NCBI GenBank assembly: GCA_964475165.1
Contig: CAYYVN010000008.1
Location: 4,160-68,159, forward strand
Direction of reading: 5' to 3'
Source of the DNA: an uncultured Verrucomicrobiota bacterium
GTDB lineage: Bacteria; Verrucomicrobiota; Kiritimatiellia; JAAZAB01
Length of the DNA: 64,000 nucleotides
In this document: positions 1,399-45,803 of the stretch, one piece after another
Numbering within the stretch: the first letter of the stretch is position 1
Layout of the letters: every line of letters starts with the position of its first letter
The notes under the pieces: generated by a model
What the model saw: the letters and a program-made list of their open reading frames with translations, nothing else
Told to the model about the DNA's origin: nothing
The model's database searches: none
Program-made: the position numbers and the translations under genes

Positions 1399-1500
1399 TA
1401 TTTAGGCGTGACAACTCGCGCCGCTTATGCTTTCATCAAGCACGGTTATTTACTTATTGCCGGCCAGGCGGGCTTGGCGATCAAACAGGGGAGGGCAAAC

Positions 1501-26573: not shown

Positions 26574-26632
26574 GAGATAGTCATCCGCAACTTGGCTTGT
26601 TGACCCAGCCATTCTGGTGACTGGTCGGAGTT

Positions 26633-28915: not shown

Positions 28916-30208
28916 CTAAGCATTAAGCGCCCCTGGTATGATCGCTCCATGTTGCCGCAACAGGGCGTAGACATCCTCCAGCGGCAGTTCCTCCGGATCC
29001 AGCTCTTGCGCCGCGCTCAAGGCCGCCAGCGCGCCGGCCGCCTGACCGGTGGCCATACAAGTTGCTTGGACGCGTAAAGCTGAATTGGCCAGACGATCGC
29101 TGGCGAGGCAACGGCCGGCTACCAACAGATAATGGCTCTTAACCGGCAGTAGCGCTCCGCGCGGCACAGTGGGCACCACTCCCTCGGCCAAAGGCTGGCA
29201 TTGCACGCCCGATCCGGCTGCGCCGTGCAGGTCAATGGGATAGAAAGCATAACAGAGGGCATCTTCCCATAGCCGACCGGATTGATAGTCTTGAACTGTC
29301 ACGGTTTTTTTACCTTGGATGGTGATGGTTTCGCGCACGCCGCATTCGGGGGCCAGCTGTTCGATAACCAGTTGCTCCAACCCCGGTTGCTGGCGCAGAA
29401 AGCGATAGAGCCGCAAGAGGCTCTGGCGGGCTTGCAATTCCAGGCGACTCTTGCTCCGGCTGTCCCGGGCGTTGATGTTATAGATATGATTGGAGTTGAA
29501 GCCGTGGCTGGAGAGCCAGCGTTCGATATGGGGCCCGTGGGCGTTCCAGGATGCATCGGTGTAGGCCAGGCGTCCGGCGCGCACCTCGCCGTCGAAGGCC
29601 CGGTTGATGCTATCCAAATCGAGTTTTGCCAGATCATATCCGCCGACTCGATAGGCCAGGGTGGCCGGCTGGTTGGTCTCTGGCAGATTAAGCGGCAAGC
29701 CGGCCAGGGCGACGGCATTGGCATCGCCGGTGGCGTCGATCAAGACTTTGGCGCTATAGCGCAATAAGCCTTCCTTGGCGCAGAGGGTTATGCGCCATCC
29801 CGCGTGCTGGGTCCAGGGTTCCAGGTCGGCTAAGAGGGTATGGAAGAGGATCTCAACTCCGGCCGCGCCGGCGGCCTCATCGCAGAGTGCCGCATAAAGG
29901 CTGGGATTAACGCGTATCTGGAGGCGGTCATGCGATTGGCGATAAGCGGTGAAGTCGGGCAGGCTGTCGCCGGCTTCTCTCACGCACCGCTCGACTAACT
30001 CCCAGCCCAGGCCGGCGATGATCTGTCGACCCCAGGCATGGAAGAGGCCCGGGTAGTGCATGCCGGCGGAGGTGAGCGTGCCGCCCAGCAGGCCGGTTTT
30101 TTCCACAAGTAGGGTCCTGGCTCCGGCGCGCCCCGCCTGAATGGCGGCTATCGTTCCGGCTGTTCCTCCACCGATAACAATTACATCATATGCTAGTGGC
30201 TCTTGCAT
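28916..30208 (-). CDS. FAD-dependent oxidoreductase (FAD_oxidored/GidA-like family)
   Basis: DVIVIGGGTAG..AAI.A.R.G..TLLVEK...LGG..T, IDATGDA, and VP.GAL.P....LLVAGRC. Confidence 0.85.
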   Translation of the reverse strand: MQEPLAYDVIVIGGGTAGTIAAIQAGRAGARTLLVEKTGLLGGTLTSAGMHYPGLFHAWGRQIIAGLGWELVERCVREAGDSLPDFTAYRQSHDRLQIRVNPSLYAALCDEAAGAAGVEILFHTLLADLEPWTQHAGWRITLCAKEGLLRYSAKVLIDATGDANAVALAGLPLNLPETNQPATLAYRVGGYDLAKLDLDSINRAFDGEVRAGRLAYTDASWNAHGPHIERWLSSHGFNSNHIYNINARDSRSKSRLELQARQSLLRLYRFLRQQPGLEQLVIEQLAPECGVRETITIQGKKTVTVQDYQSGRLWEDALCYAFYPIDLHGAAGSGVQCQPLAEGVVPTVPRGALLPVKSHYLLVAGRCLASDRLANSALRVQATCMATGQAAGALAALSAAQELDPEELPLEDVYALLRQHGAIIPGALNA

Positions 30209-30925: not shown

Positions 30926-31618
30926 TTAGCGGAAGTATTGTTCCATGGCGGCCAGTCCGGCGGGCGTGCCCATATCCAAAAGCGGCGGCGGAGTGGGGCA
31001 GACGCTTAGTTGCCGCTGCGCAGCCAGGCCCGGGAAAATATCCTTCTCCAATGAAAGGGCCTCATCCACCGGCAACAGATCCAAGATCGCTTTGGACATC
31101 AGATAGATACCGCCATTGATCCAGGCCGCCTCCCGCTCAGCTTTTTCATGGAAGGCGACCAAGCGTCGCTGGGCATCGAACTCAATCGTACCATAGCGGT
31201 CTGCCGGCCGGATTTGGGTGACGGCGATGGCTGCCAAGATGCCGTTCTGCCCGGCGGCGGTTCGCAGAGCGGTCAGTTCCAGGGCCGGCAAGAGGGTATC
31301 GCCGTTGAGGACCAGGAAGGGATCGGAGCGGATATGATTCTGGGCGAACTTCAGGCCGCCAGCCGTGCCCAGGGGGCTGGGCTCGATGGAATAGGAGAGC
31401 TGGCCGTCGGGCTTGGCCTGGCCTAGCCAGGCCACGATATCCTGAGCTAGATAACCGGCCGCCAGATGGATGGCTTCGATCCCCAAACGGTTCAGCCAGC
31501 GCAGCTGGCGCGCGAGGAAGGGTTCACCGGCGACTGGTACCAGCGCCTTGGGGCGATCAGGAAAGAGTTCCTTGATGCGCGTGCCCCGGCCACCCAGCAG
31601 AATGATCGCTTGAATCAT
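30926..31618 (-). CDS. hddC: Sugar-phosphate nucleotidyltransferase, HddC-like (heptose-1-P guanylyltransferase)
   Basis: ILLGG.GTR......RPKAL.PV.G.PFL, EP.PLGT.G.L, LNGDT, INGGIY and SLE.D.FP. Co-located with hddA. Confidence 0.75.
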   Translation of the reverse strand: MIQAIILLGGRGTRIKELFPDRPKALVPVAGEPFLARQLRWLNRLGIEAIHLAAGYLAQDIVAWLGQAKPDGQLSYSIEPSPLGTAGGLKFAQNHIRSDPFLVLNGDTLLPALELTALRTAAGQNGILAAIAVTQIRPADRYGTIEFDAQRRLVAFHEKAEREAAWINGGIYLMSKAILDLLPVDEALSLEKDIFPGLAAQRQLSVCPTPPPLLDMGTPAGLAAMEQYFR

Positions 31619-31628
31619 GGCGTATCAG

Positions 31629-31656
31629 ATAATATACTTTGAACAGGGTTTGTCAA
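31629..31656 (-). promoter_or_regulatory. Canonical sigma70 promoter for hddC
   Basis: Minus strand TTGACA (31656-31651)-16 nt-TATTAT (31634-31629), 10 nt above the hddC ATG. Confidence 0.6.
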
Positions 31657-31710
31657 AACAAGCCTGCGCTTTAATCAGCCCGTAAGTGTGTCGGTGGCTA
31701 AGATAAACGG

Positions 31711-32964
31711 ATGAAGACGACCCCTCAAAAACAGCCCGCGAGCACGCCGCCCACATGGCTCAAGACCTTTCTGGCTGTGGTCATTGCCTTGGCGGTAATT
31801 TTGGCCCTGGCGGCCTTGGTGATGATGTTCAATTGGGCGCCGATCACCCGAGCTCTCGCTCAGGAGGGCTGGGGGGCTTTTGCTGCTGTTATCCAGCGTA
31901 ATAAGATCAGCGCTTTATGGCATGCTTCCTTGATGAGCGCCGCCCTGGCGCTGGGCGTCTGGCTCTTGTGCTGCACGCCCGGACTGCGCCGCGCAGTGGC
32001 ACAGTCCTTAGCCTGGCTATTGGTCTTGCTGGTGGCCGCCGATGCTTTCTATTTAGCGCGCCATTATATCAAGACCATGCCGCTCAGTGCCGTGGCCGAA
32101 AATGATGTTATCCGCATCTTAAAATCTGCTCAGCCCGACGGTCGGGTAGCATTGGTGAGTCAATCCGGATTTTATAATCTCTGGTTGACCTATCTCTTGC
32201 CCTATCATCATATCCAGGCGATGAATGTGACCCAGATGCCCCGTATGCCCCAGGATTATAAGCAATTCCTCGAGGCGCTGGGTGGCCAGCCCTTGCGGCT
32301 GTGGCAACTTTCCGCCGTGACACATGTTTTGGGGCCAGCCCAGTTTTGGAATCATCTTCAGCAGGATGAACAGCTGCGCGCTGCTTTCAGACTGCTGTAC
32401 GCTTATAATGTTATACAAGATGATGCGCGCGTGACGGTTATCCCGGCCAGTGCCGAGCAACCGGGTCAACATGTGGTGCTGGAGCTGAAACTGCCCGCCC
32501 CGCGCTTCGCCTTGCTGGCCGGCTGGGAGGCTTTGCCGGATGATGAGGCTTTGCATCGCCTGGCCGATGAAGCTTTTCCCCTGTGGACCCAAGTCCTGGT
32601 GGCGCCGGAATGCGCCCAGGATCTAGCGCCCTTGGCGGGGCAGGGCTTGCGAGGCAGGATACAGCGCAAAAGCGGCTCGGCCCGCGAGGTGATTCTGGAT
32701 ATTATCACGGAAGAAGCGGCTATTTTGAGGATTGCCAATAAATATGATCCGGACTGGAAAGCCTGGGTGGATGGGCAGTCTCAACCTGTCTTGAGGGTCG
32801 ATTATATCTTTCAGGGGGTATATATTGCCCCCGGCCGCCATGAAATCATTTTGCGTTACGCGCCCCGCATTTGGACGGCTTGGGTTCAGGTGGCAGGGAT
32901 ATTGGCGTGCGGGGGAGCGGCATGGATCTTATTGGCTCGCCGCCGGAAAAATCCGGATAAATAG
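31711..32964 (+). CDS. YfhO-family GT-C protein, C-terminal half only
   Basis: Three TMs (LL..LVAAD.......Y), then a soluble region ending PR..L...W, EAAILR....YDPDWKAWVDG....V.RVDY.FQGV.I..G.HE....Y.P and a final TM, which is the YfhO C-terminus. Confidence 0.75.
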   Translation: MKTTPQKQPASTPPTWLKTFLAVVIALAVILALAALVMMFNWAPITRALAQEGWGAFAAVIQRNKISALWHASLMSAALALGVWLLCCTPGLRRAVAQSLAWLLVLLVAADAFYLARHYIKTMPLSAVAENDVIRILKSAQPDGRVALVSQSGFYNLWLTYLLPYHHIQAMNVTQMPRMPQDYKQFLEALGGQPLRLWQLSAVTHVLGPAQFWNHLQQDEQLRAAFRLLYAYNVIQDDARVTVIPASAEQPGQHVVLELKLPAPRFALLAGWEALPDDEALHRLADEAFPLWTQVLVAPECAQDLAPLAGQGLRGRIQRKSGSAREVILDIITEEAAILRIANKYDPDWKAWVDGQSQPVLRVDYIFQGVYIAPGRHEIILRYAPRIWTAWVQVAGILACGGAAWILLARRRKNPDK

Positions 32965-33950
32965 CCCATCCCGTAACCTAGATGAGCAACTAAGAATCCC
33001 GTTATGGTCATGAGAGCTTCGAGGGCGCCAGAGGAAACTTTCAGGCTCTCGAAGATAATCGCCAAGAAATATAAGAATAGCGGCAGATAGCTTAAACTTA
33101 TTATTCGGGCCGGCCAAGGGCATAGCCAGATAAAATTGACGATCAAAAGGTAGATCATTAGCAGCGCCGGCATGGCCTGCCAGAGATATGTGCTCCCTTT
33201 TCCCTTTCGAGCGATCCAGCCTTTGTAAAGGCCGTAATTATAAAATTGTTTGAAAAAAGGGAGATACACGGCGCGGCGGTGATGAAAGACCACCACCTCC
33301 GGGTCGTAAAGGATTGTTAAGCCTTGGGCGCGCATATCTTCGCAAAAGACCATATCCTCAGCGGTATCAAGTCTTTCATCAAAGAACAGGTTGGGGGGCC
33401 GGCGTATCACCATGTTGCAAGTTGGCATCTCATTCACCAAGCGGCGCGATACGGGGCGATGGCGAATATGGGCTGGTCCAAACCCTAGCGGACTGGCCAT
33501 CACATGTCCTGAGATCCGGCGCCGTAAAGCATCCCTGGGTGGCGTCAGGTTGGGGCCGGCCACTATTCCAACTTTATCCCGTAGTAAGGGCACGGCTTGT
33601 TTGAGCCAGTCGTTCCGGGGATAAGCATCGGCATCAATGAAAGCCAGGATTGATTCCTGTGCTTTGTGCAACGCGACATTCCGTTTGCAGGCCGGATTGC
33701 TGGGCCCCGTTGGCTCAATGATAACAGGGTGAACCTGCCCGACAGTTTCCAGTCGTTTTTTCCAATGTTCATCGGGCATCTCATTCGGCAAAAGCCACAA
33801 GGTGAAATGAGGATAGTCCAGCTTATGGCAATGCTGCACGCAATCCAGAAGCCAATCATCCCATTTATGGCAGGGGACCACGATAGCTACGGCGGGCCAC
33901 TCGTTGAGACGAGAGGGTAGTTCTGTTTGAGTTTTCATGCCATCCACCAT
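32886..33950 (-). CDS. GT2 family glycosyltransferase with C-terminal TMs
   Basis: AIVVPC, KRN.A, AFIDADAYP..DWL, NM..R...FDE....AED, Y.P.VVVFHHRR and F.KQ...YG. Confidence 0.85.
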   Translation of the reverse strand: MVDGMKTQTELPSRLNEWPAVAIVVPCHKWDDWLLDCVQHCHKLDYPHFTLWLLPNEMPDEHWKKRLETVGQVHPVIIEPTGPSNPACKRNVALHKAQESILAFIDADAYPRNDWLKQAVPLLRDKVGIVAGPNLTPPRDALRRRISGHVMASPLGFGPAHIRHRPVSRRLVNEMPTCNMVIRRPPNLFFDERLDTAEDMVFCEDMRAQGLTILYDPEVVVFHHRRAVYLPFFKQFYNYGLYKGWIARKGKGSTYLWQAMPALLMIYLLIVNFIWLCPWPARIISLSYLPLFLYFLAIIFESLKVSSGALEALMTITGFLVAHLGYGMGYLSGFFRRRANKIHAAPPHANIPAT

Positions 33951-34019
33951 TTACCCGCGTTAAAAGCGCACCTCAGTTCAAAATAGATTGGTTCTCATAA
34001 ACCGGCGGTAAGCTGGCCC

Positions 34020-35384
34020 TCAAAGCGCATGTGATCTTTGGCGGTGAGTTTTTTCATGGACGTCCCTGGCGCCCGCAGAAGATGGAGTATGGTTGCAGCG
34101 CATCAATTCATCCAGTCCATAGGCCGCCAGGATACCCAGGGTCAGTTGGAAGACTTGCAGGAATTTATTGGGATTGCGGATGGTGGAGATAAGCGGCAAT
34201 TTATAGAAGAGTGCATAAAGCGGAAAATATTTACCAAAAGCTAACAGGAGGGTGAGGCCGGCCGCGCAGCTCCAAAAGATTATTTCCGCTTTGCGTTCCG
34301 AATGCTCAGCGCCTGCACCTGCCTGATCATGCGGCAGGCCCTTGATAGCTGCCAGCAGGGCAAAGAGGGCCAGCAGGATGGGAATGGCACCCAGGTATTG
34401 GTTCTCCAGCTTGAAATTCATGAATCCCTGGCGAGTCTCTTCCCATCCGGCTGAGCGCCCCATGCGTCCCCAATAGGGGCCGGCAGCCTCACCGCTGCGC
34501 CAGCCCATATAGCCCGGGGCGATGAAGTCAATGCTTTCCGTCGGCGGCCAGCTCCATTGGGTGGCATAGGCCCACTTTTCCTCGGCCGACTCAGCCTGCA
34601 TCACAGCCACTTCCTGCACATTGATGCGGTAATTGCTGAGAATGTTGGAAAAGGAAAACAGCAGACCCATAGCGCCCAGCGTCAGCAGCACCAGGCAAGG
34701 CTTCCACCAGCTATGGCTGGCTCGCGCCAGCCGGATAGCCAGAAAGAGGGCGTAGGCGCCCAGAACCAATCCGAAGAAAAGGGCCACATCCAATTGCTCC
34801 AGGAACATCAGCCCTATGGCCGCACCGGCTAAAATACTCCAGGCGTAATGCGCCTGGCTCTCCAGCGCCTGCGCCAGGCAGTAGAGCCCCACACCGGCCC
34901 AGAGCAGCACGCCGAATTTGCCGATATGCCCGGCATAGGTTAAAGTTAAATTACTACCCAACCATAAGGCGCTCAATAATCCCATGAAAATGGCTGGGTA
35001 AGACATGCGGCGCCGTATCAGAAAGAGCATCATAAAAACAGAAGCGCCCAGCAGGGATAGGGCATGGATCCAGTTGAAATAAAGAGTGGTGGGCGCCAGC
35101 CAGAGTAAAACATTATTTAGAGTAAGAGGCAGGGAGCCGGCGGGCATGCCTAATAAGACAGAATCTTGCCACCACCATAAAAAGGATTCGGGCATTGTGC
35201 TCTTAGCCAAGTTGCATAAGCCGATGTTATCATCGGTAGTGAAAAGACACACATGCTTGAAAAATATCTGCCGAAACAAGCCAGCCGCCAAAAACAATAT
35301 GGCTAGCATAGCCCAAGCGAGCTTGCGGAGACTGGTGGAGGAGATAAGTTTATTTCCTTGTGAGGGCATATCCCTGCTCAGCAT
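34020..35384 (-). CDS. YfhO-family GT-C protein, N-terminal half only
   Basis: F.TDDNIG, W......GMP, AGHIGK, ATQWSWPP.E...F..PG..G, YWGRMG, YLG.IP..LA, L.LAFGKY.PLY..FY..P.....RNP.KF; ends just after this loop. Confidence 0.75.
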   Translation of the reverse strand: MLSRDMPSQGNKLISSTSLRKLAWAMLAILFLAAGLFRQIFFKHVCLFTTDDNIGLCNLAKSTMPESFLWWWQDSVLLGMPAGSLPLTLNNVLLWLAPTTLYFNWIHALSLLGASVFMMLFLIRRRMSYPAIFMGLLSALWLGSNLTLTYAGHIGKFGVLLWAGVGLYCLAQALESQAHYAWSILAGAAIGLMFLEQLDVALFFGLVLGAYALFLAIRLARASHSWWKPCLVLLTLGAMGLLFSFSNILSNYRINVQEVAVMQAESAEEKWAYATQWSWPPTESIDFIAPGYMGWRSGEAAGPYWGRMGRSAGWEETRQGFMNFKLENQYLGAIPILLALFALLAAIKGLPHDQAGAGAEHSERKAEIIFWSCAAGLTLLLAFGKYFPLYALFYKLPLISTIRNPNKFLQVFQLTLGILAAYGLDELMRCNHTPSSAGARDVHEKTHRQRSHAL

Positions 35385-36630
35385 TTTCTGGGTCGCGCAG
35401 AATACAGTCTAGCACAGCATTGGCAGTGTGCCTAGACATCCATTGGCGTCTGATCGGTTGCAGGCGATCCTGCAGCCGTGTATAATCCTGTAAAACATGC
35501 CGCAAAATCAGCTGTGCATGCGCAGGGTCTTTCAAGTTCACGCCTAGATCTCCCAGACCTTCCCGTTGCAGTTCGTTATCCAGCCATGTATCACGAGCCA
35601 CAATGGGCAGGACTCCATAAAGCACACTCTCGATTAAGATGTTGGAGGATTGCGCCCTAAAAATCGGTGGGCGATACAATAAAACAGCTATATTGGCGCG
35701 CCGTAATAGCTCGTGATATGCATTTTCCGGCAGAACAGCATCTTGGATTTGGATTTGTGGAAAACGATCGGCCAAGCGTTTCAGCCTGTGGAAGTAAGCG
35801 AGACTGCGCTCATATTCTGCCGGCGGTTGTTGGGAGGGGATAAGGTAAGCCTGCGCAATAACCCGTACTCGCTCAAAGAGGCTGGCATCATTGGAGAGCT
35901 CTTCAATCAGCTCCACAAAACAATCGAACCCTTTATTGATGCGCGCGCCACCCAAGAAAACGATGACCAAGGGATCTAGAGGCTTGGCTTCCATGGTAAA
36001 GCTCTGCGCTCCCACCGAGGGTATTATGGGGATCGGGCAGACTGCGACCGGCCAGCGCAATAACCCGGTGTAATCGGCGCTGAGCTTCTGGGTATCGCTG
36101 ATATAGCGTAGGCGTCTGCCCAGAGCTTTGCTCATTAGACCATGGCAGAAGCGCTGGCCCCACCCGAACATTTGGGTCATGAAAGCCGAAGGGTAGGAAC
36201 CGCGTCGCCAATCAAAGCGCAGCATGATGACGACACGTATCTTCTTGGCGGCCAGCTCATGACGCGTTTGCCAGATGAAACAGGCTAGAGGCAAAAGATC
36301 CGGCAACAATATGGTGGGGATAAAAATAAGGTCTCCCTGAGCGGGCTGCAGGCCATCTACGGCATACCATTGTGAGCGCAATTGCCTGTAAAGCCGGATC
36401 ATGGCCCGGAAGATCTTCAATATTTTGAGGAGATTGACCCTGGACTCCACCGTTTGCGCTGTCACCGGCGTGAAAGCCGGCACAATCTCGTTACTGCATG
36501 CGCTCGTGGCTCCATAGAGGTGGACCACGATTCCGCGGGCGCGGGCTGCTTCCATCACGCGCTTGTCGTAGCCATAAGCATGGCCGCTTTCATCGCCAGT
36601 CAGGCCGGGATCTATAATCAAGATCTTCAT
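35350..36630 (-). CDS. GT-B (GT4-like) glycosyltransferase
   Basis: MKILIIDPGL....GH, FLGGAR.NKGFD, Y.ELL..A...VL.Y and S.IL.E....G. Confidence 0.7.
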   Translation of the reverse strand: MKILIIDPGLTGDESGHAYGYDKRVMEAARARGIVVHLYGATSACSNEIVPAFTPVTAQTVESRVNLLKILKIFRAMIRLYRQLRSQWYAVDGLQPAQGDLIFIPTILLPDLLPLACFIWQTRHELAAKKIRVVIMLRFDWRRGSYPSAFMTQMFGWGQRFCHGLMSKALGRRLRYISDTQKLSADYTGLLRWPVAVCPIPIIPSVGAQSFTMEAKPLDPLVIVFLGGARINKGFDCFVELIEELSNDASLFERVRVIAQAYLIPSQQPPAEYERSLAYFHRLKRLADRFPQIQIQDAVLPENAYHELLRRANIAVLLYRPPIFRAQSSNILIESVLYGVLPIVARDTWLDNELQREGLGDLGVNLKDPAHAQLILRHVLQDYTRLQDRLQPIRRQWMSRHTANAVLDCILRDPENAEQGYALTRK

Positions 36631-36738
36631 GCTAATTGTCTAAAAAAATCCTGCTGAGGCATGGCTGCGGGTTATGCTTAAAGGAGCGCTCCGGTTCTAT
36701 TCTGAGGAGCCTTGTTTTGCATTGAGGGATTATAGTGC

Positions 36739-37659
36739 TCAGGACGCAGATCCTAGTATTGCCTTATCGAACCACGCCACCGTTTGTTGTAGGCCCTGAT
36801 CCAGTGGGGTAGGGTTCCAAACGGGCATCAGCGTGCCTAGTTTTTCGATATCCAAAACCTTTGATCTGGCGCCCACATAACGATCAGGATCATAGCGGAT
36901 TAAATCGTGATCATAACCAGTAATTTCACATATTTTTTTGGCGAAAGCGCGTATCGAATAGCCTTGGCCGTTGCCGATATTGATAATTTCATTGGCAACG
37001 TGTTGCGCCAGAAATAAGGCCGCCTTCACAAAATCATCAATATAAACCAACTCCCTTTGCTGATAGCCATCACCCCAGAGGACAACAGCAGCTCCGCGTT
37101 TCTTTCCGTTCAAGATCTTCTCTATTAAATCGAAGATAAAATGCATTTGCTTCCCCTGCGTGCGGTAGCCCGGGCCATATAAAGTGGAAGGAACCAGATA
37201 AAGATACTGCAAGCCATACTGCTGATGTAAGGCTTGCAGGCCGACATAAAGCATGCGTTTGGTCATCGCGTAGGTATATAGGTCTGGAATAGGCATGCCT
37301 TGCATATAATTGGATTCAATCAGCTTATCCTCTGGCGCATACGAGCAACTAGTGCCCATAGCTATTAGTTTGGCTTGAGGCTGACGAGCTTGCCACCAAT
37401 CCAAAACAGTGGTGTTGATATGCTGATTGATGATCCATTGTTCACCAGGGTGATAACGGCAGAAATCACCAGCCTGGGTCCAGGCCGCCAAATGATATAT
37501 AAAATCATAACGCCTGTCTTCAAAAGCCCGGAGCGCTCCCGGCTGCCGTAAATCAGCATTCCGGGAATTGACGCCCACCACCTGGGCGCCCTGGGCAGTC
37601 AGGGCGCGGCATAAATGAGTGCCTAAAAAACCGGTGGCTCCGGTTACTAGAATATTCAT
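36739..37659 (-). CDS. GDP-fucose-synthase-like NDP-4-keto-sugar C4-reductase (SDR)
   Basis: ILVTGATGFLG, HLAA...AG, GTSCSY, YAMTKR (YxxxK), PSTLYGPG and WGDG.QQRE..Y.DD. Confidence 0.8.
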   Translation of the reverse strand: MNILVTGATGFLGTHLCRALTAQGAQVVGVNSRNADLRQPGALRAFEDRRYDFIYHLAAWTQAGDFCRYHPGEQWIINQHINTTVLDWWQARQPQAKLIAMGTSCSYAPEDKLIESNYMQGMPIPDLYTYAMTKRMLYVGLQALHQQYGLQYLYLVPSTLYGPGYRTQGKQMHFIFDLIEKILNGKKRGAAVVLWGDGYQQRELVYIDDFVKAALFLAQHVANEIINIGNGQGYSIRAFAKKICEITGYDHDLIRYDPDRYVGARSKVLDIEKLGTLMPVWNPTPLDQGLQQTVAWFDKAILGSAS

Positions 37660-38870
37660 GGAGTTTGCTCCGACGGATTGATGGGAAAAAAGAACTCGAC
37701 CCCCTGATGTAGCAGATCGGCGTAGCGGTTCAGTATTTCATTTTTAAAGTTCCAGGCCAGTACGAAATATATATCTGGTTGGCGGAGGACTTCATTTTCC
37801 AGCAGGATGGGGATATGCATTCCAGGCGAATACAAATGCGCCCGCATAGGGTTTTTTTCCACCAGATAATCCAAATAACGTGTGTTGATCCCGCAGTAAT
37901 TTAAAAGGGTATTCCCCTTAACTGGTGCGCCCATACCATAAATTGTTTTGCCTGTCGCTTTGGCTTTCTCCAGATATGCCATCAGGCGTGTGCGCAGTTC
38001 AGTTGTGCGGTGCGCAAACGCAGCATAAGTGGCAAAATCATTGGTATGTTCGCGAGCCTCTAACGCGCGCATAGCGGTTAGGCGCTCGGAAACCTGGGCC
38101 AGATTATGATGCCTGACAAAAAGAATGATTGATCCGCCATGCACAGGTGAGCAATAGGCATCCACAGATGCTAGACCATGACGTTGCAGCAGGTGCTCAA
38201 TGCTAGCTAGGGTATAATAGAGCAGGTGTTCATGGTAGACCTGATCGAAAGCGGTATTGGCCATGATCTGTTTCATATAAATAAATTGTACTACGAAAAT
38301 CCCCTCTGGTGCCAAGCATTCCCGAATACCTTCCGTTACCGAGTGCAATTCCTCCAAATGAAAAAACACTCCGGACGCATTGATAATACCGAATTTGCGC
38401 TCCAAGTTTTGGGCCGTTTCAAGATTGAAGAAATCGGCGACGGTCGGAATACCGGAGGCCACAGCTCGCTGCGCAATTTTGTGGCAAGACTCCACGCCGA
38501 GCACATCATATCCCAGGCGTTGATATTCTTGTAGTTGTGTGCCATCATTGGAGCCGATATCCAAGACGCTCCGCTGCGCTAAGCTATGCCCGAAATGGTG
38601 ATCAACATATTGGGCAGTTTCAGCAAAATGGTTTCTGAGAGTTGCCGTGGTGCCGGAGAGATAAGTATGGTTCTTGAACATGATTTCTTTGGAGACCGTA
38701 TAATCCAACTGCGCCGCCTGGCACTTCGCACAATGCAGTAATCGCAAGGGATAGCGTGGTTCGCGGCCCAGCTCATCCTTTTTCAAAAAATGATTGCCCC
38801 AGGGTTGATCTCCTAAATCGAGAGCCAAGCGTAAGTCTTTCCCGTCGCATATCCTACATTGCATTGTCAT
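37656..38870 (-). CDS. NDP-sugar C-methyltransferase (Zn-binding N-domain, SAM domain, C-methyltransferase C-domain)
   Basis: CRIC....L..LDLG.QP.GN.F, C.KC...QL, DIGSNDG..L, YHEH..YY, HGGS and YG.GAP.KGNTLLNY, as in the TcaB9/NovU/EryBIII type. Confidence 0.85.
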   Translation of the reverse strand: MTMQCRICDGKDLRLALDLGDQPWGNHFLKKDELGREPRYPLRLLHCAKCQAAQLDYTVSKEIMFKNHTYLSGTTATLRNHFAETAQYVDHHFGHSLAQRSVLDIGSNDGTQLQEYQRLGYDVLGVESCHKIAQRAVASGIPTVADFFNLETAQNLERKFGIINASGVFFHLEELHSVTEGIRECLAPEGIFVVQFIYMKQIMANTAFDQVYHEHLLYYTLASIEHLLQRHGLASVDAYCSPVHGGSIILFVRHHNLAQVSERLTAMRALEAREHTNDFATYAAFAHRTTELRTRLMAYLEKAKATGKTIYGMGAPVKGNTLLNYCGINTRYLDYLVEKNPMRAHLYSPGMHIPILLENEVLRQPDIYFVLAWNFKNEILNRYADLLHQGVEFFFPINPSEQTP

Positions 38871-39370
38871 GGTGTATCCTCACTCGTAAAAACCATCCGC
38901 TCTGAAAAACGGCGGTTATTGTCTTGGATCCGGATGCCATATGCTCGCCGGGATTCCATCAACCCGGCACTTGTTTGTTGTGGGTCCTCGGCGAGCCATT
39001 GATGATGGCCATAGCGCGAGAGCATCATGGGCCTAATGGGAGAACTTTCGGAATTATGCTCGGGGTGCATCTTGTTGGAGTACACATCAAGAGCGGAAAG
39101 CTGCATATAGTGCTCGAATCGAAAATCATGCAAAGCGCGCGCCACACCGCGCACCGATGCTTCGAATTCTAACTGCGGATTTTGATCTGCCAGATATTTC
39201 TGGGAATTGCCAGTGGTATTGATCAGCACGCGACACTTGGCGCCTGCCCGCAGGGAATATTCATCTGCATCCACCACCTCGGGTTCGATACCCTGGTGGC
39301 GGTATTTCGTCGCGCTGGCGGATTCCAGAAAACCCCTTCCGCCCAATACGATTATCTCTGCAGATGCCAT
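38867..39370 (-). pseudogene. Decayed NAD-dependent epimerase/reductase
   Basis: Rossmann motif GGRGFLE (third Gly lost) and YGHHQ in place of YxxxK. Similarity ends about 130 aa in, and the C-terminal half is missing. Confidence 0.6.
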
Positions 39371-39536
39371 ATCCGTAAAACTCTAGCTCCAACATTACAA
39401 CGGTAAAATCAATGTAATCTGGCGGACTAGCTCTATCAAGAAACTTTTGATGATAGATCCGGCTTCGGCTAACAACATCAGTGCCAGCTCCTCATCTCGA
39501 CCGCACACTGGCCAGTCGATTGCACCGTTAGGGCCA

Positions 39537-40799
39537 TCAGGTTGGCTGGTCGTCTGATTTCACCAGCTCATAATCTAACTTGGCATCCACGCATAATTTA
39601 AGCAGAGGCTCCACCATTTGCTGGGTTATCTTTTGCTTATCAAAGAGTTCTCCGGCTGCAGCCAAGGCCAGGGAGCCAAATTTTTTACGGAGCACAGGAT
39701 TTAAAGCCAATCTGATGAGCTTAGCCTTGAATTCAGCCATATTGGTCGGATCAAACAGGTAACCATTTTCTCCATCGCGAATGACCTCTCTAATCGAGTT
39801 TAACCTGGCCGCGAGCACTGGTAAAGCGCAAGCCATATTATGGACCAGCGTGCCAGTCATAGAGAAGTGATCCGTATCAAGTCCCACGCGCATCACCAGG
39901 CCAATATCGCCCGCATTAAGGGCCTCATTGACTTCAGCGGGGGTATCCAGCCATCCAGCAAAGGTGACGATTTTTTGTAAATTATGGGCGGCAACCATTT
40001 TCTGTAGACGCGGCAATTCGGGGCCGTCACCAATCAGCAGAAAACGCAGCGCCGGGCATTGAGGCAGCACATCAGGCAATGACGCAATAATGAGATCATT
40101 GCCCTTGTTGGGATGCAGGATGCCATGATGCACGAGAATGATTTCATCTGGTGCAAAGCTCCAGCGTTGCCGACAGGGGTCCTTTGGTTGGGGGTAGTAT
40201 ATATTTGTATCGCAGGGATCGTATACCGGTACAACACGTGCGGCAGGCACCCCTGATTGTGCTAGATAAGCGCGCGTGGTTTTAGCGCGGGTAAAAATCA
40301 AGGGCAGTTTGCGCCAAACTAGCATATCCAGGCGGTTGATCGCCTGGCCCAGGCTTCTGAGACAAGGGTTTTTACGACCATAGATGTTGAGGAAAAAATC
40401 AGCAATCGTTACCACGACCTTCCGTCCAAAAAATATGCGTGCCAGACCAGCGCTCAAAGGCAGCGTTTCCTCAATGAAAACCACATCAATATTATGGATC
40501 CGGCAATGGAGTCCCATAAAGGGTATGAGCAAAATCCATAAGCAGGTTTTTAGGAATTTATCGAAGGTGCTTTGGCGGTTAATGGCCAGGGGCAAGATAT
40601 GGAGCCGGGCATTCCGGGCTATGCGCTGCGGACATGGCTTGGAGCTTTTCAAGCCATAATAATGAACCACGCAATCGTGCGCGAGAGCTTCTATGATATC
40701 TGGGATGCAATGCAAGAGCTCGGTATGTTCCGCCGGGCCATAGCGAAACCAAAAGGCAATCTGCGGCTTGCGACGGGGATTGTTTGTTGGGGCCTGCAT
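39537..40799 (-). CDS. GT4 family glycosyltransferase
   Basis: HG.L...KG.D, ..GDGPE...L, GW.....V......DIG, MA..LPV.A.....REVI.DGENGYLF. Confidence 0.85.
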   Translation of the reverse strand: MQAPTNNPRRKPQIAFWFRYGPAEHTELLHCIPDIIEALAHDCVVHYYGLKSSKPCPQRIARNARLHILPLAINRQSTFDKFLKTCLWILLIPFMGLHCRIHNIDVVFIEETLPLSAGLARIFFGRKVVVTIADFFLNIYGRKNPCLRSLGQAINRLDMLVWRKLPLIFTRAKTTRAYLAQSGVPAARVVPVYDPCDTNIYYPQPKDPCRQRWSFAPDEIILVHHGILHPNKGNDLIIASLPDVLPQCPALRFLLIGDGPELPRLQKMVAAHNLQKIVTFAGWLDTPAEVNEALNAGDIGLVMRVGLDTDHFSMTGTLVHNMACALPVLAARLNSIREVIRDGENGYLFDPTNMAEFKAKLIRLALNPVLRKKFGSLALAAAGELFDKQKITQQMVEPLLKLCVDAKLDYELVKSDDQPT

Positions 40800-40989
40800 G
40801 GTTTAAAATAATATCAGGCGTGATTGCGGGGCGCATCTGCGCAGGGCTCTGCAATCATCCTCATATACGGACCAATCCTTTTTTACGAGCTTCCCTACAT
40901 CAACGGACGGTGCAGGCAATCCCCACTTCAAGCGAGGTAGGAAAACTCATTCCCGACTTGCTAAGCTGCCAAAATTATGCCGGCTAAAA

Positions 40990-41151
40990 TTATCCGCATG
41001 CTTCCATGCATAAGACAACCTCGGCTCCAAACAGCGCCTCGGATAAGCCTTCGGGAGCGTTCAGATCCATAACAATATCGGCCGGTCCACTATCTGGTAT
41101 GCCGCGCCATCCGCGGCAAATAGACAAGGCAAAACCGAGTCGCTCTATCAT
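40990..41151 (-). pseudogene. Possible remnant of a class I SAM methyltransferase
   Basis: 53-codon ORF with ADIVMDLN...AEVVLCMEA, resembling the D.V.DLN...FD.VLC.E pattern, in an otherwise ORF-less 500-bp gap. Confidence 0.25.
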
Positions 41152-41304
41152 GGTGCATCCATGGGGGATTGATCGTTTGTAACCCTACAATGCTTATCTT
41201 GAATTACTACCAGCGTCAAGAGGCTTATATTTTAATTCCAGCGCGCCGCGCCTTGCTCCCAGAGAGATCCTTGTGGCCTGTAGCAATACTCAAGCATGGG
41301 GTGC

Positions 41305-42579
41305 TTATGCATTTGCCGAAAGAATCTGCTGTGGTTGATTGCGGTGCAGAGCCAGAAATAAAAAGATCAACAAAAATGTTCCAACCAACATCAGCACCGC
41401 CACGATCTGCAACAAGGCGGCATGCCAGAGGATAACGCCCGCCAGGTAAGCGCCAACGCAAAGGGCTAGAGGCGCCAGGATCCGAAAACGGTTTTGGGAG
41501 AGCTCGAAGGTCATCAGGATATAGGCCAGGCTCAGGGGGCTCATGGCCCAAATCACACCGCGCACCAGGCGGCGCATCTCGGCTTCTGGTGCCCAATCAT
41601 GATAGAGCAGGCCCAGTGGCAATTGCGGAAAGAGGCTGCAGATCAGGGCCGCTGCGCCGACCAGCAGGCCGGCATAGAGTAGCGCCCGCCTGAGCATTTC
41701 CAGATGCTGATGGCTGCTGGCGCCATGACTGACTGTTTTAGGAAATAAAGCGCCGGCAATGGGCATAGGCAGGAAGATGATCATGCGCCCGATGGTGCTG
41801 GCGCGCGCGTAAAGGCCCGATTCCAGGGGTGCGAAATAGTGTTTAACGATCAACACATCGGCATTCATCAGAAAAGCGAAGCCTGCCAATACCAGGAGCG
41901 TCTGCAGCAAATACGTGCGCGCGCCACTCGGTAAACCCTGCGCCGGCGCCAAACGCCCGCGCAATACCAGGATGAGCCCCCAGAGGCCCAAGCCAAGATT
42001 CACCAGCACGGCCAGGCCTTGCCCGGCCAATGCCCAGTGGGCTGTGGCCGCAATTGCATAGACGAACCAGCCGCCGGCCAAGAGGCGCACCAGACCCCAG
42101 CTGGCGCCGGCGATGGAGGCCCAGCCAAAAGCCTGTACCCCTTGCAAGGCGCCGCCCATAATGGGTGGTAGAAAGGAGAGCGCCAAGACCAATAAAGCCC
42201 AGAAGAATACACCGCTATTGGGTAATTGGAAGAAGAGCGTTAGACTATCGCGCGCCAGCCAAGCGGCCCAGAATATGCCGATGGCGATCAAGGCCATTTT
42301 CCAAGCCCAGTTCCAGACCAGCGGCAGAATATCGCCGGCGCGCTGCTCTTGCAGCAGATGCGCGGAGAAAAAGGCCAGAGCATTGCTGAGAGCGTTCAAG
42401 GGCATGCCAGCGATCAGGATCAGGCCCAGCATGGAAACCAGGATGCCATACTCCGTCGGCGCCAACCAGCGGCCCATCACCACATGAAAAAGAGCATTAC
42501 AAATATTGCCCACCTGGGAAGCTGCCATTAACAGCAGGCTATGCCGCAGGAGGGGATCCTTAAGATTCACAGGGCTCAT
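41305..42579 (-). CDS. Wzx-like oligosaccharide flippase (MOP family)
   Basis: About 12 TMs, N.LFH....R.L.P..YG.L, D...VKHYF.....G.YA.AS.IGR.I.F.P. Start set at ATG 42579. Confidence 0.85.
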   Translation of the reverse strand: MSPVNLKDPLLRHSLLLMAASQVGNICNALFHVVMGRWLAPTEYGILVSMLGLILIAGMPLNALSNALAFFSAHLLQEQRAGDILPLVWNWAWKMALIAIGIFWAAWLARDSLTLFFQLPNSGVFFWALLVLALSFLPPIMGGALQGVQAFGWASIAGASWGLVRLLAGGWFVYAIAATAHWALAGQGLAVLVNLGLGLWGLILVLRGRLAPAQGLPSGARTYLLQTLLVLAGFAFLMNADVLIVKHYFAPLESGLYARASTIGRMIIFLPMPIAGALFPKTVSHGASSHQHLEMLRRALLYAGLLVGAAALICSLFPQLPLGLLYHDWAPEAEMRRLVRGVIWAMSPLSLAYILMTFELSQNRFRILAPLALCVGAYLAGVILWHAALLQIVAVLMLVGTFLLIFLFLALHRNQPQQILSANA

Positions 42580-43552
42580 AAAAAATGATTTGGGTCCCCG
42601 AATGCTCGAACCGGAAGGGGACATGGAGTAGGGGCGCCATCTGTTGTTGGAATTGCGCCTGCCGCTCCGGCGGCACAAAGAAAAGCATGAACCCACCGCC
42701 ACCGGCGCCCAGCAGCTTACCGCCGAGTGCGCCGGCTTGCAGCGCCTGAGCATAAATGGCATCCACATGCGATGTTGATATTTTAGTGCTGAGCGAACGC
42801 TTGATCTGCCAGGATTCGTGCAGCAGCCTTCCAAAGGCGGCGATATCATCGGTGCCCTGCAGAATGGCCAGGGCCTGATCCACCATTTGGCGCATGGCCC
42901 GCAGTTCCTTGGTTTTGGCGGATATATTGCGGATTTGGTCGGCAGCCACCTCGGAAGCGGTGCGCGAGAAGCCGGTGAAATAGAGCATCAGATGGGATTG
43001 CAGTTGCCGCAAACGCGCCGGGGATAGCGTCACCGGCTGAAGGGTGATGCGGTCGCCGGCAGCGAACTCGATCAGGTTCAAACCCCCGCAGGCGGCGGTC
43101 ACTTGGTCCTGAGAGCCCACATTTTCGCCGATCAGATCACGTTCGACATGGATGGCCTCTTGGGCCAACTGCTGGCGGCTGCGCATCGTGCCGCGCAGGG
43201 CATAGAGAGCGTGCAGAATCCCCACCATGAAGGCGGAGCTGGAGCCCAAGCCGGCGCGGGCCGGCAGATCGCTATCATTATGGATTTCCACACCCTGTTC
43301 GATGCGCAGGTATTTCAGGCCCTCGCGCACAGCTGGGTGCTTGATTTCCTCGATGGTATTTACCCCCTCGAGGCGCGAGTAAACGATGCGGTATTTATGA
43401 TCGAAGAAAGGTGGCAGATAGCGGCAGGTGATGTAGCAATAGCGGTTGATGCTGGTGGCCAGCACCGCCCCGCCATGGTCATTGTACCAGGCCGGATAAT
43501 CTGTACCCCCACCAAAAAACGAGATGCGATAAGGCGTGCGACTGATAATCAT
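42560..43552 (-). CDS. hddA: D-glycero-alpha-D-manno-heptose-7-phosphate kinase (GHMP family)
   Basis: IISRTP.RISFFGGGTDYP, DLPA.AGLGSSS, VG.QDQ..AA.GG and GGKLLGAGGGGF. Start set at ATG 43552. Confidence 0.88.
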   Translation of the reverse strand: MIISRTPYRISFFGGGTDYPAWYNDHGGAVLATSINRYCYITCRYLPPFFDHKYRIVYSRLEGVNTIEEIKHPAVREGLKYLRIEQGVEIHNDSDLPARAGLGSSSAFMVGILHALYALRGTMRSRQQLAQEAIHVERDLIGENVGSQDQVTAACGGLNLIEFAAGDRITLQPVTLSPARLRQLQSHLMLYFTGFSRTASEVAADQIRNISAKTKELRAMRQMVDQALAILQGTDDIAAFGRLLHESWQIKRSLSTKISTSHVDAIYAQALQAGALGGKLLGAGGGGFMLFFVPPERQAQFQQQMAPLLHVPFRFEHSGTQIIFYEPCES

Positions 43553-43584
43553 CTTTATTTTCCTGAGCGCGCCTGAGTTTCCCC

Positions 43585-44517
43585 TCAAATATTGGCATAT
43601 TGATTGCGGCGGATGATTTGATAACCCTTGATCAATTCGGCGATCCCCTGCCTCAGGGAGTGGCGCGGCTTGAAGCCGGTGCCCTCGAGCTTGGCGTTGC
43701 TGACCAGATAATCGCGCTGATCCGGGTCGCGGCCGACCGGAGACTCCAGGATCTGAAAATCGGGTAGTTGCTTCTTGATCTCCAAACAGAGCTCCAGCTT
43801 GGAGAGATTGGCGTTGCTGAGACCGACATTATAGGCTTCGCCGCGCATCTGGGCCTGCTGATCCAAGGCATGCATAAAAGCGCGGGCCACATCGCGCACA
43901 TGGATGTAATTGCGCTTGAAATGCGATTCGAAGAGCACCACGCAACGATCGGTTATGGCGCGATAGGTAAAATCATTAACCAATAAATCCAGGCGCATGC
44001 GCGGGCTGATGCCGAAGGCCGTGGCCAGACGCAGCGAAATAGCATTGCTGGATTCCAGCAGATATTTCTCCAACTCCACCTTCAATTTGCCATAGAGGGA
44101 GACGGGCCGCAGCGGCGAGCGTTCAGTGCAATAACCATCTCGCGTACCGATGCCATAGCCGCTATTGGTGATGGGGATGATGATGAGCTGCTGGCGACTG
44201 GCCAGGCGGCTGAGCATCTTTACAGCATCCAGATTGATGGCGCGCGCTTCCGTCGGCTTCCGCGCGCAAAGCGGCGCACCCACCAAGCAGGCCAGGGGCA
44301 AGATGGCATCGGCCTGGGGCAGGGCGGATTTGATGAGGGCCTTATCCCGCGCGTCACCGCGGATAACCGTCAGGGATTTTTTATGGCAGCAATCCAGGAG
44401 GGAGGCTTGACCATATAAGAAATTATCGATCACCGTCACTTGATGACCGGCGTTCAAGAGCATCGGCACTAAAATCGAGCCAATATAACCGGCACCGCCG
44501 GTGACCAGGATCTTCAT
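43585..44517 (-). CDS. GDP-D-glycero-D-manno-heptose C4-dehydrogenase-like SDR (Campylobacter Cj1427c type)
   Basis: GGAGYIGS, PLA.LVGAPLC, P.TNSGYGIG, CTE.SPLRP.S.YG..K, RLAT.FG.SPRMRLDLLVNDFTYRA and DPD.RDY.VSN.KLE match my recollection of Cj1427c along its length. Confidence 0.8.
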   Translation of the reverse strand: MKILVTGGAGYIGSILVPMLLNAGHQVTVIDNFLYGQASLLDCCHKKSLTVIRGDARDKALIKSALPQADAILPLACLVGAPLCARKPTEARAINLDAVKMLSRLASRQQLIIIPITNSGYGIGTRDGYCTERSPLRPVSLYGKLKVELEKYLLESSNAISLRLATAFGISPRMRLDLLVNDFTYRAITDRCVVLFESHFKRNYIHVRDVARAFMHALDQQAQMRGEAYNVGLSNANLSKLELCLEIKKQLPDFQILESPVGRDPDQRDYLVSNAKLEGTGFKPRHSLRQGIAELIKGYQIIRRNQYANI

Positions 44518-44653: not shown

Positions 44654-45803
44654 ATGCCGGATGATCTCAAGGAACGCCTGGAACGCCTGGAGTTGAAGGT
44701 GCTGGAGATGCGGAGGTATCTTTGACGTTGCCAACCGCGAGCAGGCCTTGCGTGAACTGGAAACGCGCATGGCCGCGGCAGAATTCTGGCATAACCAGAC
44801 CGCTGCCCAGGAGGTCATCGCGCAGGCCAATGCGCAGCGCGCCATCCTGAATCCCTTCCGGGCCCTGCAAACCGGCTATGAGGATAACCGTCTCCTGCTG
44901 GAATTGGCCCTGGCCGAGCCGGACGCTGAGCAGCGTCAGATGGCCTTAAGCAGCGTGACGCAGGACCTGGATCGTTTGGAGGCCGCTTTCCAGAAACTGG
45001 AACTGGAATCCCTGTTCAATGGCCGCTTTGATCGGCATAACGCCTATCTCACCCTGCATGCCGGCGCGGGTGGCACGGAATCCTGCGATTGGGCGGAGAT
45101 GCTCTTGCGTATGTATCGCCGCTATTGCGAGCAGCATGGTTTCGAGGTGGCCTTGCTCGATATCCTGCCCGGCGAGGAAGCCGGCATCAAAAATGCCACC
45201 CTGGCCGTGAATGGAGAGTATGCCTATGGCTACCTCGCCGCCGAGCGCGGCGTACACCGCCTGGTGCGCATCAGCCCCTTCGATGCCAATAAGCGCCGCC
45301 ATACCTCTTTTGCCTCCCTGGATGTGGTGGCGGAACTGAACGATGAGGTTGCCGTGGAAATCAAGGAGGCTGATTTGCGCGTGGATACTTACCGTTCGGG
45401 CGGGGCCGGCGGTCAGCATGTTAATCGCACCGATTCGGCCGTGCGCCTGACGCACCTGCCCAGCGGCATTGTGGTGGCTTGCCAAGCGGAGCGTTCCCAG
45501 CATGCCAATCGCGCTCGCGCGCTGAAGATCCTGCAGGCGCGCCTCTATGAATGGACCCAGGACCAGAAACGCCGCGAGATGGAAAAATTCTATGGCGCCA
45601 AGGGTGAAATCGCCTGGGGCCGCCAGATACGTTCCTATGTGTTGCAACCCTATACCATGGCCAAGGATCATCGCACCGGTATTGAAATCGGCAATGTCGC
45701 CGATGTGCTGGAGGGCAACCTGGATGCTTTTATCGCTGGTTATTTAAAATTCAAACAATCCGCCGGAGATAGAGAGGGGCGCACGCCAGATGAGCATCAA
45801 TAG
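44654..45803 (+). CDS. prfB: Peptide chain release factor 2 (programmed +1 frameshift)
   Basis: ORF0 MPDDLKERLERLELKVLEMRRYL ends at CTT TGA (44720-44725). The +1 frame continues (DVANRE...) into SPF and GGQ motifs. Confidence 0.96.
44712..44726 (+). promoter_or_regulatory. RF2 autoregulatory +1 frameshift cassette
   Basis: GGAGG-TAT-CTT-TGA-C: internal SD, slippery Leu codon and weak UGA-C stop. Confidence 0.93.

Follow-up and report, generated by a model that had tools for sequence, protein, structure and literature searches.

A predicted route to a C-methyl-branched GDP-heptose in a surface-glycan gene island of a Kiritimatiellae-like bacterium

Which sugar would be made by a bacterium that carries GDP-heptose genes together with a gene for a sugar C-methyltransferase? 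The question is raised by positions 30926-44517 of a 64-kb stretch of DNA (64,000 nucleotides of contig CAYYVN010000008.1 from an uncultured Verrucomicrobiota bacterium, here called the window), where a 13.6-kb low-GC surface-glycan gene island is flanked on both sides by housekeeping genes. At the core of the island, five enzymes appear to lead to a C-methylated heptose nucleotide: a Cj1427-type dehydrogenase, an HddA/WcbL-like kinase, an HddC-like nucleotidyltransferase, a sugar C-methyltransferase and a reductase resembling GDP-fucose synthase (GFS). Judging from the sequences, the product is probably GDP-C-methyl-heptose, and we infer that its methyl group sits on C3. We give this reading, taken jointly with the view that the host is a Kiritimatiellae-like diderm and the island a cell-surface glycan locus, a probability of about 0.6.

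Five core enzymes and their predicted reactions

C4 oxidation would be the task of an extended short-chain dehydrogenase/reductase (SDR) of 310 amino acids (aa) encoded at 43585-44517 (-), which the original prediction had likened to Cj1427c of Campylobacter. In a phmmer search, residues 2-309 matched Protein Data Bank (PDB) entry 6VO6 with an E-value of 3e-121 and about 62% identity, and the next PDB match reached 1e-17. We take 6VO6 and 6VO8 to be structures of Cj1427; consistent with this, a genome search found the 6VO6 sequence to be 96% identical to a C. jejuni gene in the order Cj1427-hddA-gmhA-hddC. The motif GGAGYIG occupies residues 7-13 and YGKLK aligns with YGIDK of 6VO6, so that the full-length match and the retained extended-SDR motifs bear out the likeness to Cj1427c. 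The closest relatives (70-72%) are Kiritimatiellae and Verrucomicrobiota genes adjoining a kinase gene, a nucleotidyltransferase gene or both; in the window the kinase gene adjoins the dehydrogenase gene and the transferase gene lies within the same island. On the strength of this homology the enzyme is predicted to be a GDP-heptose C4-dehydrogenase. It would regenerate its bound NAD+ as Cj1427 does, whose tightly bound NADH is recycled when alpha-ketoglutarate is turned into L-2-hydroxyglutarate (PMC10680097).

The kinase gene at 42560-43588 (-), whose true start is likely the ATG at 43552, encodes a protein with GHMP_kinases_N and GHMP_kinases_C domains. Its best PDB matches are WcbL (4USK, 2e-43), 3K85 (6e-40) and 4N3O (1e-35), with fucokinase reaching only 1e-17, and the closest relatives that have been solved and characterised are heptose-7-phosphate kinases. 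The earlier identification as HddA is supported by these structures, although the HddA model of NCBIfam gave 155 bits, under its cut-off of 600, and identity to Campylobacter HddA is about 29%. The predicted HddC-like nucleotidyltransferase was also present, at 30926-31618 (-), as a short-form sugar-1-phosphate guanylyltransferase of 230 aa with a single domain (NTP_transferase, 2e-25). Yersinia HddC (5XHW, 2e-26) is among its top structures, together with GMPPB (1e-24), but the protein scores the mannose-1-phosphate (Man1P) guanylyltransferase model (127 bits) as well as the HddC model (121 bits, cut-off 300), in both cases below cut-off. Together, kinase and transferase are 28-37% identical to the Campylobacter enzymes. 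In Kiritimatiellae loci, genes 52-55% identical to this nucleotidyltransferase adjoin a Cj1427-like gene. Just upstream of the nucleotidyltransferase gene, at 31629-31656, there is a promoter-like TTGACA-16-TATTAT, in a scan that overall was not enriched relative to shuffled sequence.

The equal scores of the transferase bear on a different product. The Cj1427-like enzyme might oxidise GDP-mannose, in which case GDP-3-C-methyl-mannose would be made, with the heptose genes providing for a different residue. 3-C-Methyl-D-mannose is known in H. pylori (PMC9912281, PMC4205683), and it would need C4 oxidation without 6-deoxygenation, which is chemistry of the Cj1427 class. The kinase, however, is an HddA/WcbL-type enzyme, Cj1427 has GDP-heptose as its published substrate, and the gene content of related loci, given below, also speaks for heptose. 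We consider the GDP-mannose alternative improbable and continue with GDP-heptose as the sugar that is oxidised.

The methyltransferase (37656-38870, -; 404 aa) had been predicted to be an NDP-sugar C-methyltransferase with zinc, S-adenosylmethionine (SAM) and C-terminal parts, and Pfam recovered just this architecture, namely Methyltransf_13 (PF08421, 2.2e-19), a class I SAM domain (Methyltransf_23, PF13489, 3.6e-13) and Methyltransf_14 (PF08484, 2.1e-47). Among PDB entries it matched MtmC (2.7e-73), TcaB9 (1.7e-61) and KijD1 (1.6e-53), all of them named 3-C-methyltransferases. The zinc cysteines C5, C8, C47 and C50 align with those of TcaB9 and are kept in 67-68 of 68 relatives. According to mutant studies, the active site of TcaB9 comprises the positions Tyr76, His181, Tyr222, Glu224 and His225. 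The last four are matched by H171, Y212, E214 and H215, which are conserved across the 68 relatives, whereas the equivalent of Tyr76 is His68; at this position 34 relatives have His and 31 have Tyr, and the neighbouring Tyr70 is invariant. Because of the Methyltransf_13/14 architecture, the zinc cysteines and the four H/Y/E/H positions, the enzyme groups with sugar C-methyltransferases and not with O-methyltransferases. The genomic context points to GDP-4-keto-heptose as its substrate, as against the dTDP-4-keto-6-deoxyhexose of the family. Like other enzymes of the TylC3/TcaB9 type, it would remove the proton alpha to the 4-keto group and transfer the methyl group of SAM, most likely to C3.

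Could the methyl group be placed on C5 instead, as by NovU, so that the same pathway gave a 5-C-methyl heptose? The 4-keto group has two alpha carbons, C3 and C5; the family of the TylC3/TcaB9 type also includes 5-C-methyltransferases of the NovU type, and the residue at the Tyr76 position differs here. C3 is nevertheless favoured, because the best-scoring solved relatives, MtmC, TcaB9 and KijD1, are all 3-C-methyltransferases by name and because C5 of a heptose would already be substituted with the bulky C6-C7 side chain. Methylation at C5 therefore seems quite unlikely to us, and C3 is kept as the predicted position.

The final step would fall to the SDR encoded at 36739-37659 (-), next to the methyltransferase gene, where a GDP-fucose-synthase-like reductase had been proposed. 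It indeed belongs to the Epimerase family (1.4e-52) and matches human GFS (3e-27) and E. coli GFS (3e-22); with the NCBIfam model of Fcl (GDP-fucose synthase) it gave 134 bits and did not reach the cut-off of 500. The T/S-Y-K triad and the equivalent of Cys109 are kept, and the equivalent of His179 is Gly; in GFS, Cys109 and His179 form the epimerisation pair. Since the His179 position holds Gly here and differs within the clade (28 have G and 20 have H), we regard the enzyme as Fcl-like and not as Fcl. As a predicted 4-ketoreductase it would reduce C4 with NAD(P)H to yield GDP-C-methyl-heptose. Reductases linked to a methyltransferase in non-alphaproteobacterial phyla are 51-69% identical to that of the window, whereas the Fcl-like reductases of heptose cassettes without a methyltransferase are only 23-35% identical to it.

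Recurrence of the cassette in other genomes

Is the clustering of these genes in one island a matter of chance? We scanned genomes with the methyltransferase as query and obtained 80 loci from many phyla (42-70% identity), whose contents were determined by tblastn and by all-against-all clustering of open reading frames (ORFs). In 40 of these loci the sequence extended at least 8 kb to either side of the methyltransferase, and these form the full-flank subset. The reductase was found in 72 of the 80 loci, the dehydrogenase and the kinase in 59 each, and all three in 53. In the full-flank subset the numbers were 39 for the reductase, 34 for the Cj1427-like dehydrogenase, 33 for the kinase and 23 for the transferase, at median distances of 0.7-2.8 kb from the methyltransferase (0.7-1.9 kb for the first three, and about 1 kb for the Cj1427-like gene). 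The hosts included Kiritimatiellae, Chlamydiae, Planctomycetota, Comamonadaceae, Alphaproteobacteria, Verrucomicrobia, Synergistaceae, Acidobacteriota and Bacteroidota. As the same set adjoins the methyltransferase in so many phyla, its clustering in the island is not due to chance. The association of hddA, a Cj1427-like gene and a C-methyltransferase gene, put forward in the original prediction, is thus confirmed on a wider sample, dehydrogenase, kinase and reductase all accompanying the methyltransferase in 31 of the 40 full-flank loci.

The whole route from sedoheptulose 7-phosphate is encoded in Bosea (locus L038), Comamonadaceae (L013, L021), Planctomycetota (L029) and Bacteroidota (L174), the last being a compact cassette in the order nucleotidyltransferase, kinase, methyltransferase, reductase, GmhA, dehydrogenase. 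When the scan was reversed and the dehydrogenase used as query, 80 loci (62-72% identity) were obtained, of which 47 had the kinase gene adjacent, 43 contained the transferase and 9 contained GmhA; the methyltransferase, with two weak matches, was essentially absent. The reverse scan therefore describes dehydrogenase, kinase and transferase as a widespread module for C4 oxidation of GDP-heptose that is combined with varied tailoring enzymes. This general heptose module is typical of the window's lineage, and the methyltransferase with its own reductase is an add-on pair that recurs with heptose modules in many phyla. We also considered whether methyltransferase-linked dehydrogenases make up a clade of their own; this was rejected, the window dehydrogenase being nearest to unlinked genes of Kiritimatiellae and Verrucomicrobiota.

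The cofactor chemistry of Cj1427 has a possible counterpart in some of these loci. A gene for L-2-hydroxyglutarate oxidase (NF008726, 545 bits against a cut-off of 299) was found in or beside the cassette in 8 of the 80 methyltransferase loci (L006:12141-13397, L007:943-2148, L009:13141-14397, L019:13387-14589, L030:12123-13325, and in L065, L071 and L076) and in 3-4 dehydrogenase loci; L127, L128 and L172 also carry one. Such an oxidase fits the cassette, because Cj1427 turns alpha-ketoglutarate into L-2-hydroxyglutarate and the oxidase would regenerate alpha-ketoglutarate. It had no tblastn match in the 64-kb window. The FAD oxidoreductase at 28916-30208 was considered for this role and rejected, as it belongs to PF12831 and has no LhgO match.

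The cassettes also vary. Alphaproteobacterial loci (L038-L072) have an extra Fcl-like SDR between methyltransferase and reductase, and cassettes of this class carry Wzm/Wzt ABC export genes and a 1038-aa GT4-GT2 fusion. In loci of the Verrucomicrobia subdivision 3 type (L065, L069, L071, L074-L079) a Gfo/Idh/MocA oxidoreductase gene stands beside the reductase gene, and an additional class I methyltransferase was seen in 16 of the 80 methyltransferase loci. Such variants may lead to products of other configuration or with further methylation.

Besides the sub-cut-off scores and low identity of kinase and transferase and the histidine at the Tyr76 position, several observations weigh against the C-methyl-heptose route. 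The substrates of every characterised relative of the methyltransferase are dTDP-6-deoxy sugars and not GDP-heptose. In locus L018 the methyltransferase occurs with GDP-mannose dehydratase (GMD) and without a Cj1427-like gene. In Rippkaea orientalis PCC 8801 (L161, CP001287 2440538-2461740) a 61%-identical methyltransferase stands alone among lipase, TIR-WD40 and PGDH genes; close homologues are present in many other cyanobacteria. The lone cyanobacterial copy and the GMD-linked L018 mean that the methyltransferase family is not tied to heptose alone. In addition, GmhA and GmhB lie outside the window, as had been noted before: Pfam and tblastn found neither in the 64 kb, and the roughly 10 kb past its right end hold housekeeping genes only, with no GmhA or GmhB.

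Some of these observations would suit two pathways sharing one locus. Kinase, transferase and dehydrogenase would then make an ordinary modified heptose, while methyltransferase and reductase would turn a GDP- or dTDP-4-keto-6-deoxyhexose, supplied by a dehydratase with its gene elsewhere, into a virenose- or evalose-like 6-deoxy-3-C-methyl hexose. The substrates of the characterised methyltransferases, all 4-keto-6-deoxy sugars, agree with such an arrangement, as do L018, the solitary Rippkaea copy and the virenose route proposed for Coxiella, which consists of GMD, a fucose-synthase-like enzyme and methylation (PMC3204966). On the other hand, the window has no 4,6-dehydratase, and GMD was found in only 6 of the 80 methyltransferase loci, as against 15 with GmhA and 16 with GmhB. 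The Cj1427-like gene keeps its short median distance to the methyltransferase in unrelated phyla, and compact cassettes such as L174 have no other source of a 4-keto sugar. The same gene content is relevant to GDP-mannose, since GmhA and GmhB occur in those 15-16 related loci and no ManB/ManC-type genes were found among the recurrent cassette families. It is because GMD is scarce, GmhA and GmhB are present and the genes stay closely spaced in different phyla that both alternatives are less favoured; we hold the two-pathway arrangement to be unlikely and retain the single route to a C-methyl heptose. The statement that the island has no GMD and no cupin epimerase proved correct for the whole 64-kb window by Pfam and tblastn. 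Of the originally proposed sequence, in which a 4-keto heptose is C3-methylated and then reduced, the gene identities, the co-occurrence and the predominance of GmhA and GmhB over GMD are borne out, whereas C3, the stereochemistry of the reduction and the existence of the sugar itself are inferred.

Assembly genes and setting of the island

How would the modified sugar be built into a glycan? All genes of the island are on the (-) strand except that at 31711-32964 (+), and several of them resemble glycan-assembly genes. A GT4-family glycosyltransferase (GT) of the GT-B fold, encoded at 39537-40799 (-), matches Glyco_trans_1_4 (1.2e-22) and Glycos_transf_1 (5e-22), and in the Kiritimatiellae loci L002 and L005 genes 50-53% identical to it adjoin the methyltransferase-reductase pair. 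The GT2-family enzyme at 32886-33950 (-), which has C-terminal membrane segments, matches Glycos_transf_2 (1e-7) and Glyco_tranf_2_3 (3e-7), with a sub-cut-off MftF-like score of 105 bits. The 426-aa protein encoded at 35350-36630 (-), which we call GTx, had no Pfam match by itself and found only itself in a homologue search, and its relatives were taken from the methyltransferase loci instead; roughly 40 of the 80 hold homologues at 18-25% identity. Combined in a profile, 26 members of this family match the GT-B enzymes GlgA (3e-7), WaaG and MshA, and 11 of the 26 members match Glyco_trans_1_4. On this profile evidence GTx is a predicted divergent GT-B, and it is the best candidate for the transferase of the modified heptose.

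The 424-aa polytopic membrane protein encoded at 41305-42579 (-) gave no Pfam or NCBIfam match at E-values up to 1. Its relatives occur in Kiritimatiellae and Lentisphaerae, and some are labelled O-antigen export protein by JGI. The AlphaFold model has a pLDDT of 91.8, and its best Foldseek matches are to WzxE (9g9n and 9g9p, TM 0.69-0.76, E 6e-8), followed by MATE and MurJ proteins; it is thus predicted to be a flippase of the Wzx type (MOP superfamily). With the GT4 enzyme, the divergent GT-B, the Glycos_transf_2 protein and the WzxE-like fold, the two GT-B enzymes, the GT2 and the Wzx of the original prediction were all recovered. The three transferases would assemble a lipid-linked repeat, which the Wzx-fold protein would flip. 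Between the flippase and GT4 genes, 0.5 kb (40800-41304) holds no ORF or recognised feature.

A YfhO-type GT-C had also been named. Homology to a YfhO-like protein was found, but in two ORFs on opposite strands and not in one gene. The 454-aa product of 34020-35384 (-) had no Pfam or NCBIfam match at E-values up to 1; its residues 185-429 align to the N-terminal, membrane half of the 854-aa YfhO-like ORF L076:14289-16853. For the product of 31711-32964 (+), Pfam gave a YfhO match (1.6e-7, positions 774-827 of the 835 in the profile), and the C-terminal half of the same ORF aligns with its residues 152-401. The GT2 gene lies between the two halves, and no inverted repeat was found flanking them. 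The split GT-C may act outside the membrane.

Another incomplete gene lies at 38867-39370 (-) and ends at the methyltransferase start codon. The first 128 of its 167 residues align at 59% to a 277-aa RmlD-like SDR ('SDR277') in L001, the C-terminal half is gone, and the YxxxK motif reads YGHHQ, so that Gln stands in place of the catalytic Lys. Epimerase and RmlD_sub_bind domains were recognised in the full-length homologue, and intact 277-aa copies stand between reductase and kinase in Verrucomicrobial heptose cassettes, whose typical order is dehydrogenase, reductase, 277-aa SDR, kinase. By its sequence, 38867-39370 is probably a pseudogene, and it looks like the scar of a rearrangement in which the methyltransferase-reductase pair displaced an older tailoring enzyme. 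The remnant was not listed in the original gene list, although the genes named there were found in their places.

The truncated SDR and the split YfhO-like gene are signs of decay, which also speak against the proposed route. The whole island might be decaying or non-functional, with no modified heptose made; the two damaged genes, the lack of GmhA and GmhB in the window and the non-coding gap between flippase and GT4 genes would fit this. However, the five core ORFs are full-length with intact catalytic residues, identical proteins were found in several independent samples, and in most related loci, as here, the cassette does not include GmhA and GmhB. A decayed island seems very unlikely to us, and a functional route to the C-methyl heptose is preferred.

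The GC content of the methyltransferase (0.481), reductase (0.482) and GT4 (0.502) genes is well below the window mean of 0.571 and below that of the kinase, dehydrogenase and transferase genes (0.56-0.62). The low GC suggests that the central block at 36739-40799 has a history distinct from the rest. No meaningful direct or inverted repeats were found around the island and no tRNA gene adjoins it, so there is no sign of a mobile-element boundary. One flank carries genes for a peroxiredoxin, the FAD oxidoreductase and a TRL lipoprotein, the other prfB, yicC, gmk and coaC/coaB; the dcw cell-wall cluster lies upstream of the island and tgt, secDF, ispF and cysS downstream.

Some neighbouring genes were noted in passing. 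The prfB gene (44654-45803, +; start ATG at 44654) has a classic programmed +1 frameshift, with GGAGG followed by TAT CTT TGA C, the CTT TGA C at 44720-44726 and the downstream frame running to 45803. The coaBC functions, usually fused, are split into two genes at 47285-47845 and 47874-48521 (+), with a Flavoprotein and a DFP domain, respectively. ORFs without a Pfam match occur at 24531-26792 (-, 753 aa), 1408-3084 (+, 558 aa) and 5632-6327 (+, 231 aa); the last belongs to a PilM-secretin gene cluster.

Comparison with known systems

Has such a sugar been described before? Branched-chain sugars are rare in bacterial surface glycans. In a review, monosaccharides with a 3-C-methyl branch are called 'quite uncommon' (PMC9912281). 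A full-text search found no C-methyl heptose and no pathway combining Cj1427 with a C-methyltransferase in the literature covered, in agreement with the original statement that no described sugar of this kind was known. The only match for 'branched-chain heptose' was eurekanate of everninomicin, which is pentose-derived and not relevant here. Although the components are known, it appears that neither their combination nor the predicted product nor its wide distribution has been described. We lean slightly towards the view that the methyltransferase-reductase pair is an undescribed tailoring branch of GDP-heptose in many phyla, which would give the first known C-methyl-branched (eight-carbon) heptose by the first C-methyltransferase shown to act on a GDP-sugar, with its own GT-B family and sometimes with L-2-hydroxyglutarate recycling.

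If true, a C-methyl heptose would be a new class of monosaccharide. To our knowledge, the enzyme would also be the first C-methyltransferase for GDP-sugars that is amenable to biochemistry, and it would inform the still unproven methylation of Coxiella virenose. Since the cassette is found in environmental chlamydiae, in Planctomycetes and Verrucomicrobia and in Proteobacteria from soil and water, the sugar could be a surface epitope that is widespread but has been overlooked. The prediction is directly testable, because the cassette is carried by cultured strains of Bosea, Roseomonas, Falsiroseomonas, Roseibium and Siccirubricoccus.

With TylC3, EryBIII, TcaB9, MtmC and KijD1 the window methyltransferase shares the three-domain architecture, the zinc cysteines and the residues corresponding to H181/Y222/E224/H225, at E-values of 1e-53 to 1e-73. 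It differs from TcaB9, as does half of its clade, in having His in place of Tyr76. TylC3-type enzymes belong to antibiotic clusters making dTDP-2,6-dideoxy sugars, whereas the window enzyme stands in a GDP-heptose context and a polysaccharide locus.

For Coxiella burnetii the proposed route to GDP-virenose (6-deoxy-3-C-methylgulose) employs GMD (CBU0689), a fucose-synthase-like enzyme and methylation 'perhaps by CBU0691' (PMC3204966). As in the window, the 4-keto sugar would be linked to GDP, with C-methylation and an Fcl-like reductase encoded together in an O-antigen region. In Coxiella, however, a 4,6-dehydratase leads to a 6-deoxyhexose, whereas the non-dehydrating Cj1427-type oxidase of the window would keep the full heptose side chain. 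The Coxiella methylation step is itself unproven. The region implicated in virenose synthesis (CBU0674-CBU0678) also encodes a gmhA-like phosphoheptose isomerase and an HldE-like kinase/adenylyltransferase with reversed domains, the second of which is essential for phase I lipopolysaccharide (PMC5843353); it is another case of heptose-nucleotide genes near a C-methyl-sugar pathway.

We know of no description of the genes for 3-C-methyl-D-mannose biosynthesis in H. pylori, and in the Helicobacter Cj1427-like loci retrieved there was no methyltransferase within 8 kb. This O-antigen sugar is of the manno type, carries a 3-C-methyl group and keeps its 6-OH, and it would be the hexose analogue of the heptose predicted here (PMC9912281).

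The capsular GDP-heptose pathway of C. jejuni (GmhA2-HddA-GmhB-HddC, Cj1427, Cj1430 and Cj1428) resembles that of the window in its Cj1427-type C4 oxidation and in the final C4 reduction by an SDR. In contrast to C. jejuni, the window lacks a cupin C3/C5 epimerase, whose place is taken by the SAM-dependent C-methyltransferase, and the window reductase is an Fcl-like enzyme specific to the pairing with the methyltransferase.

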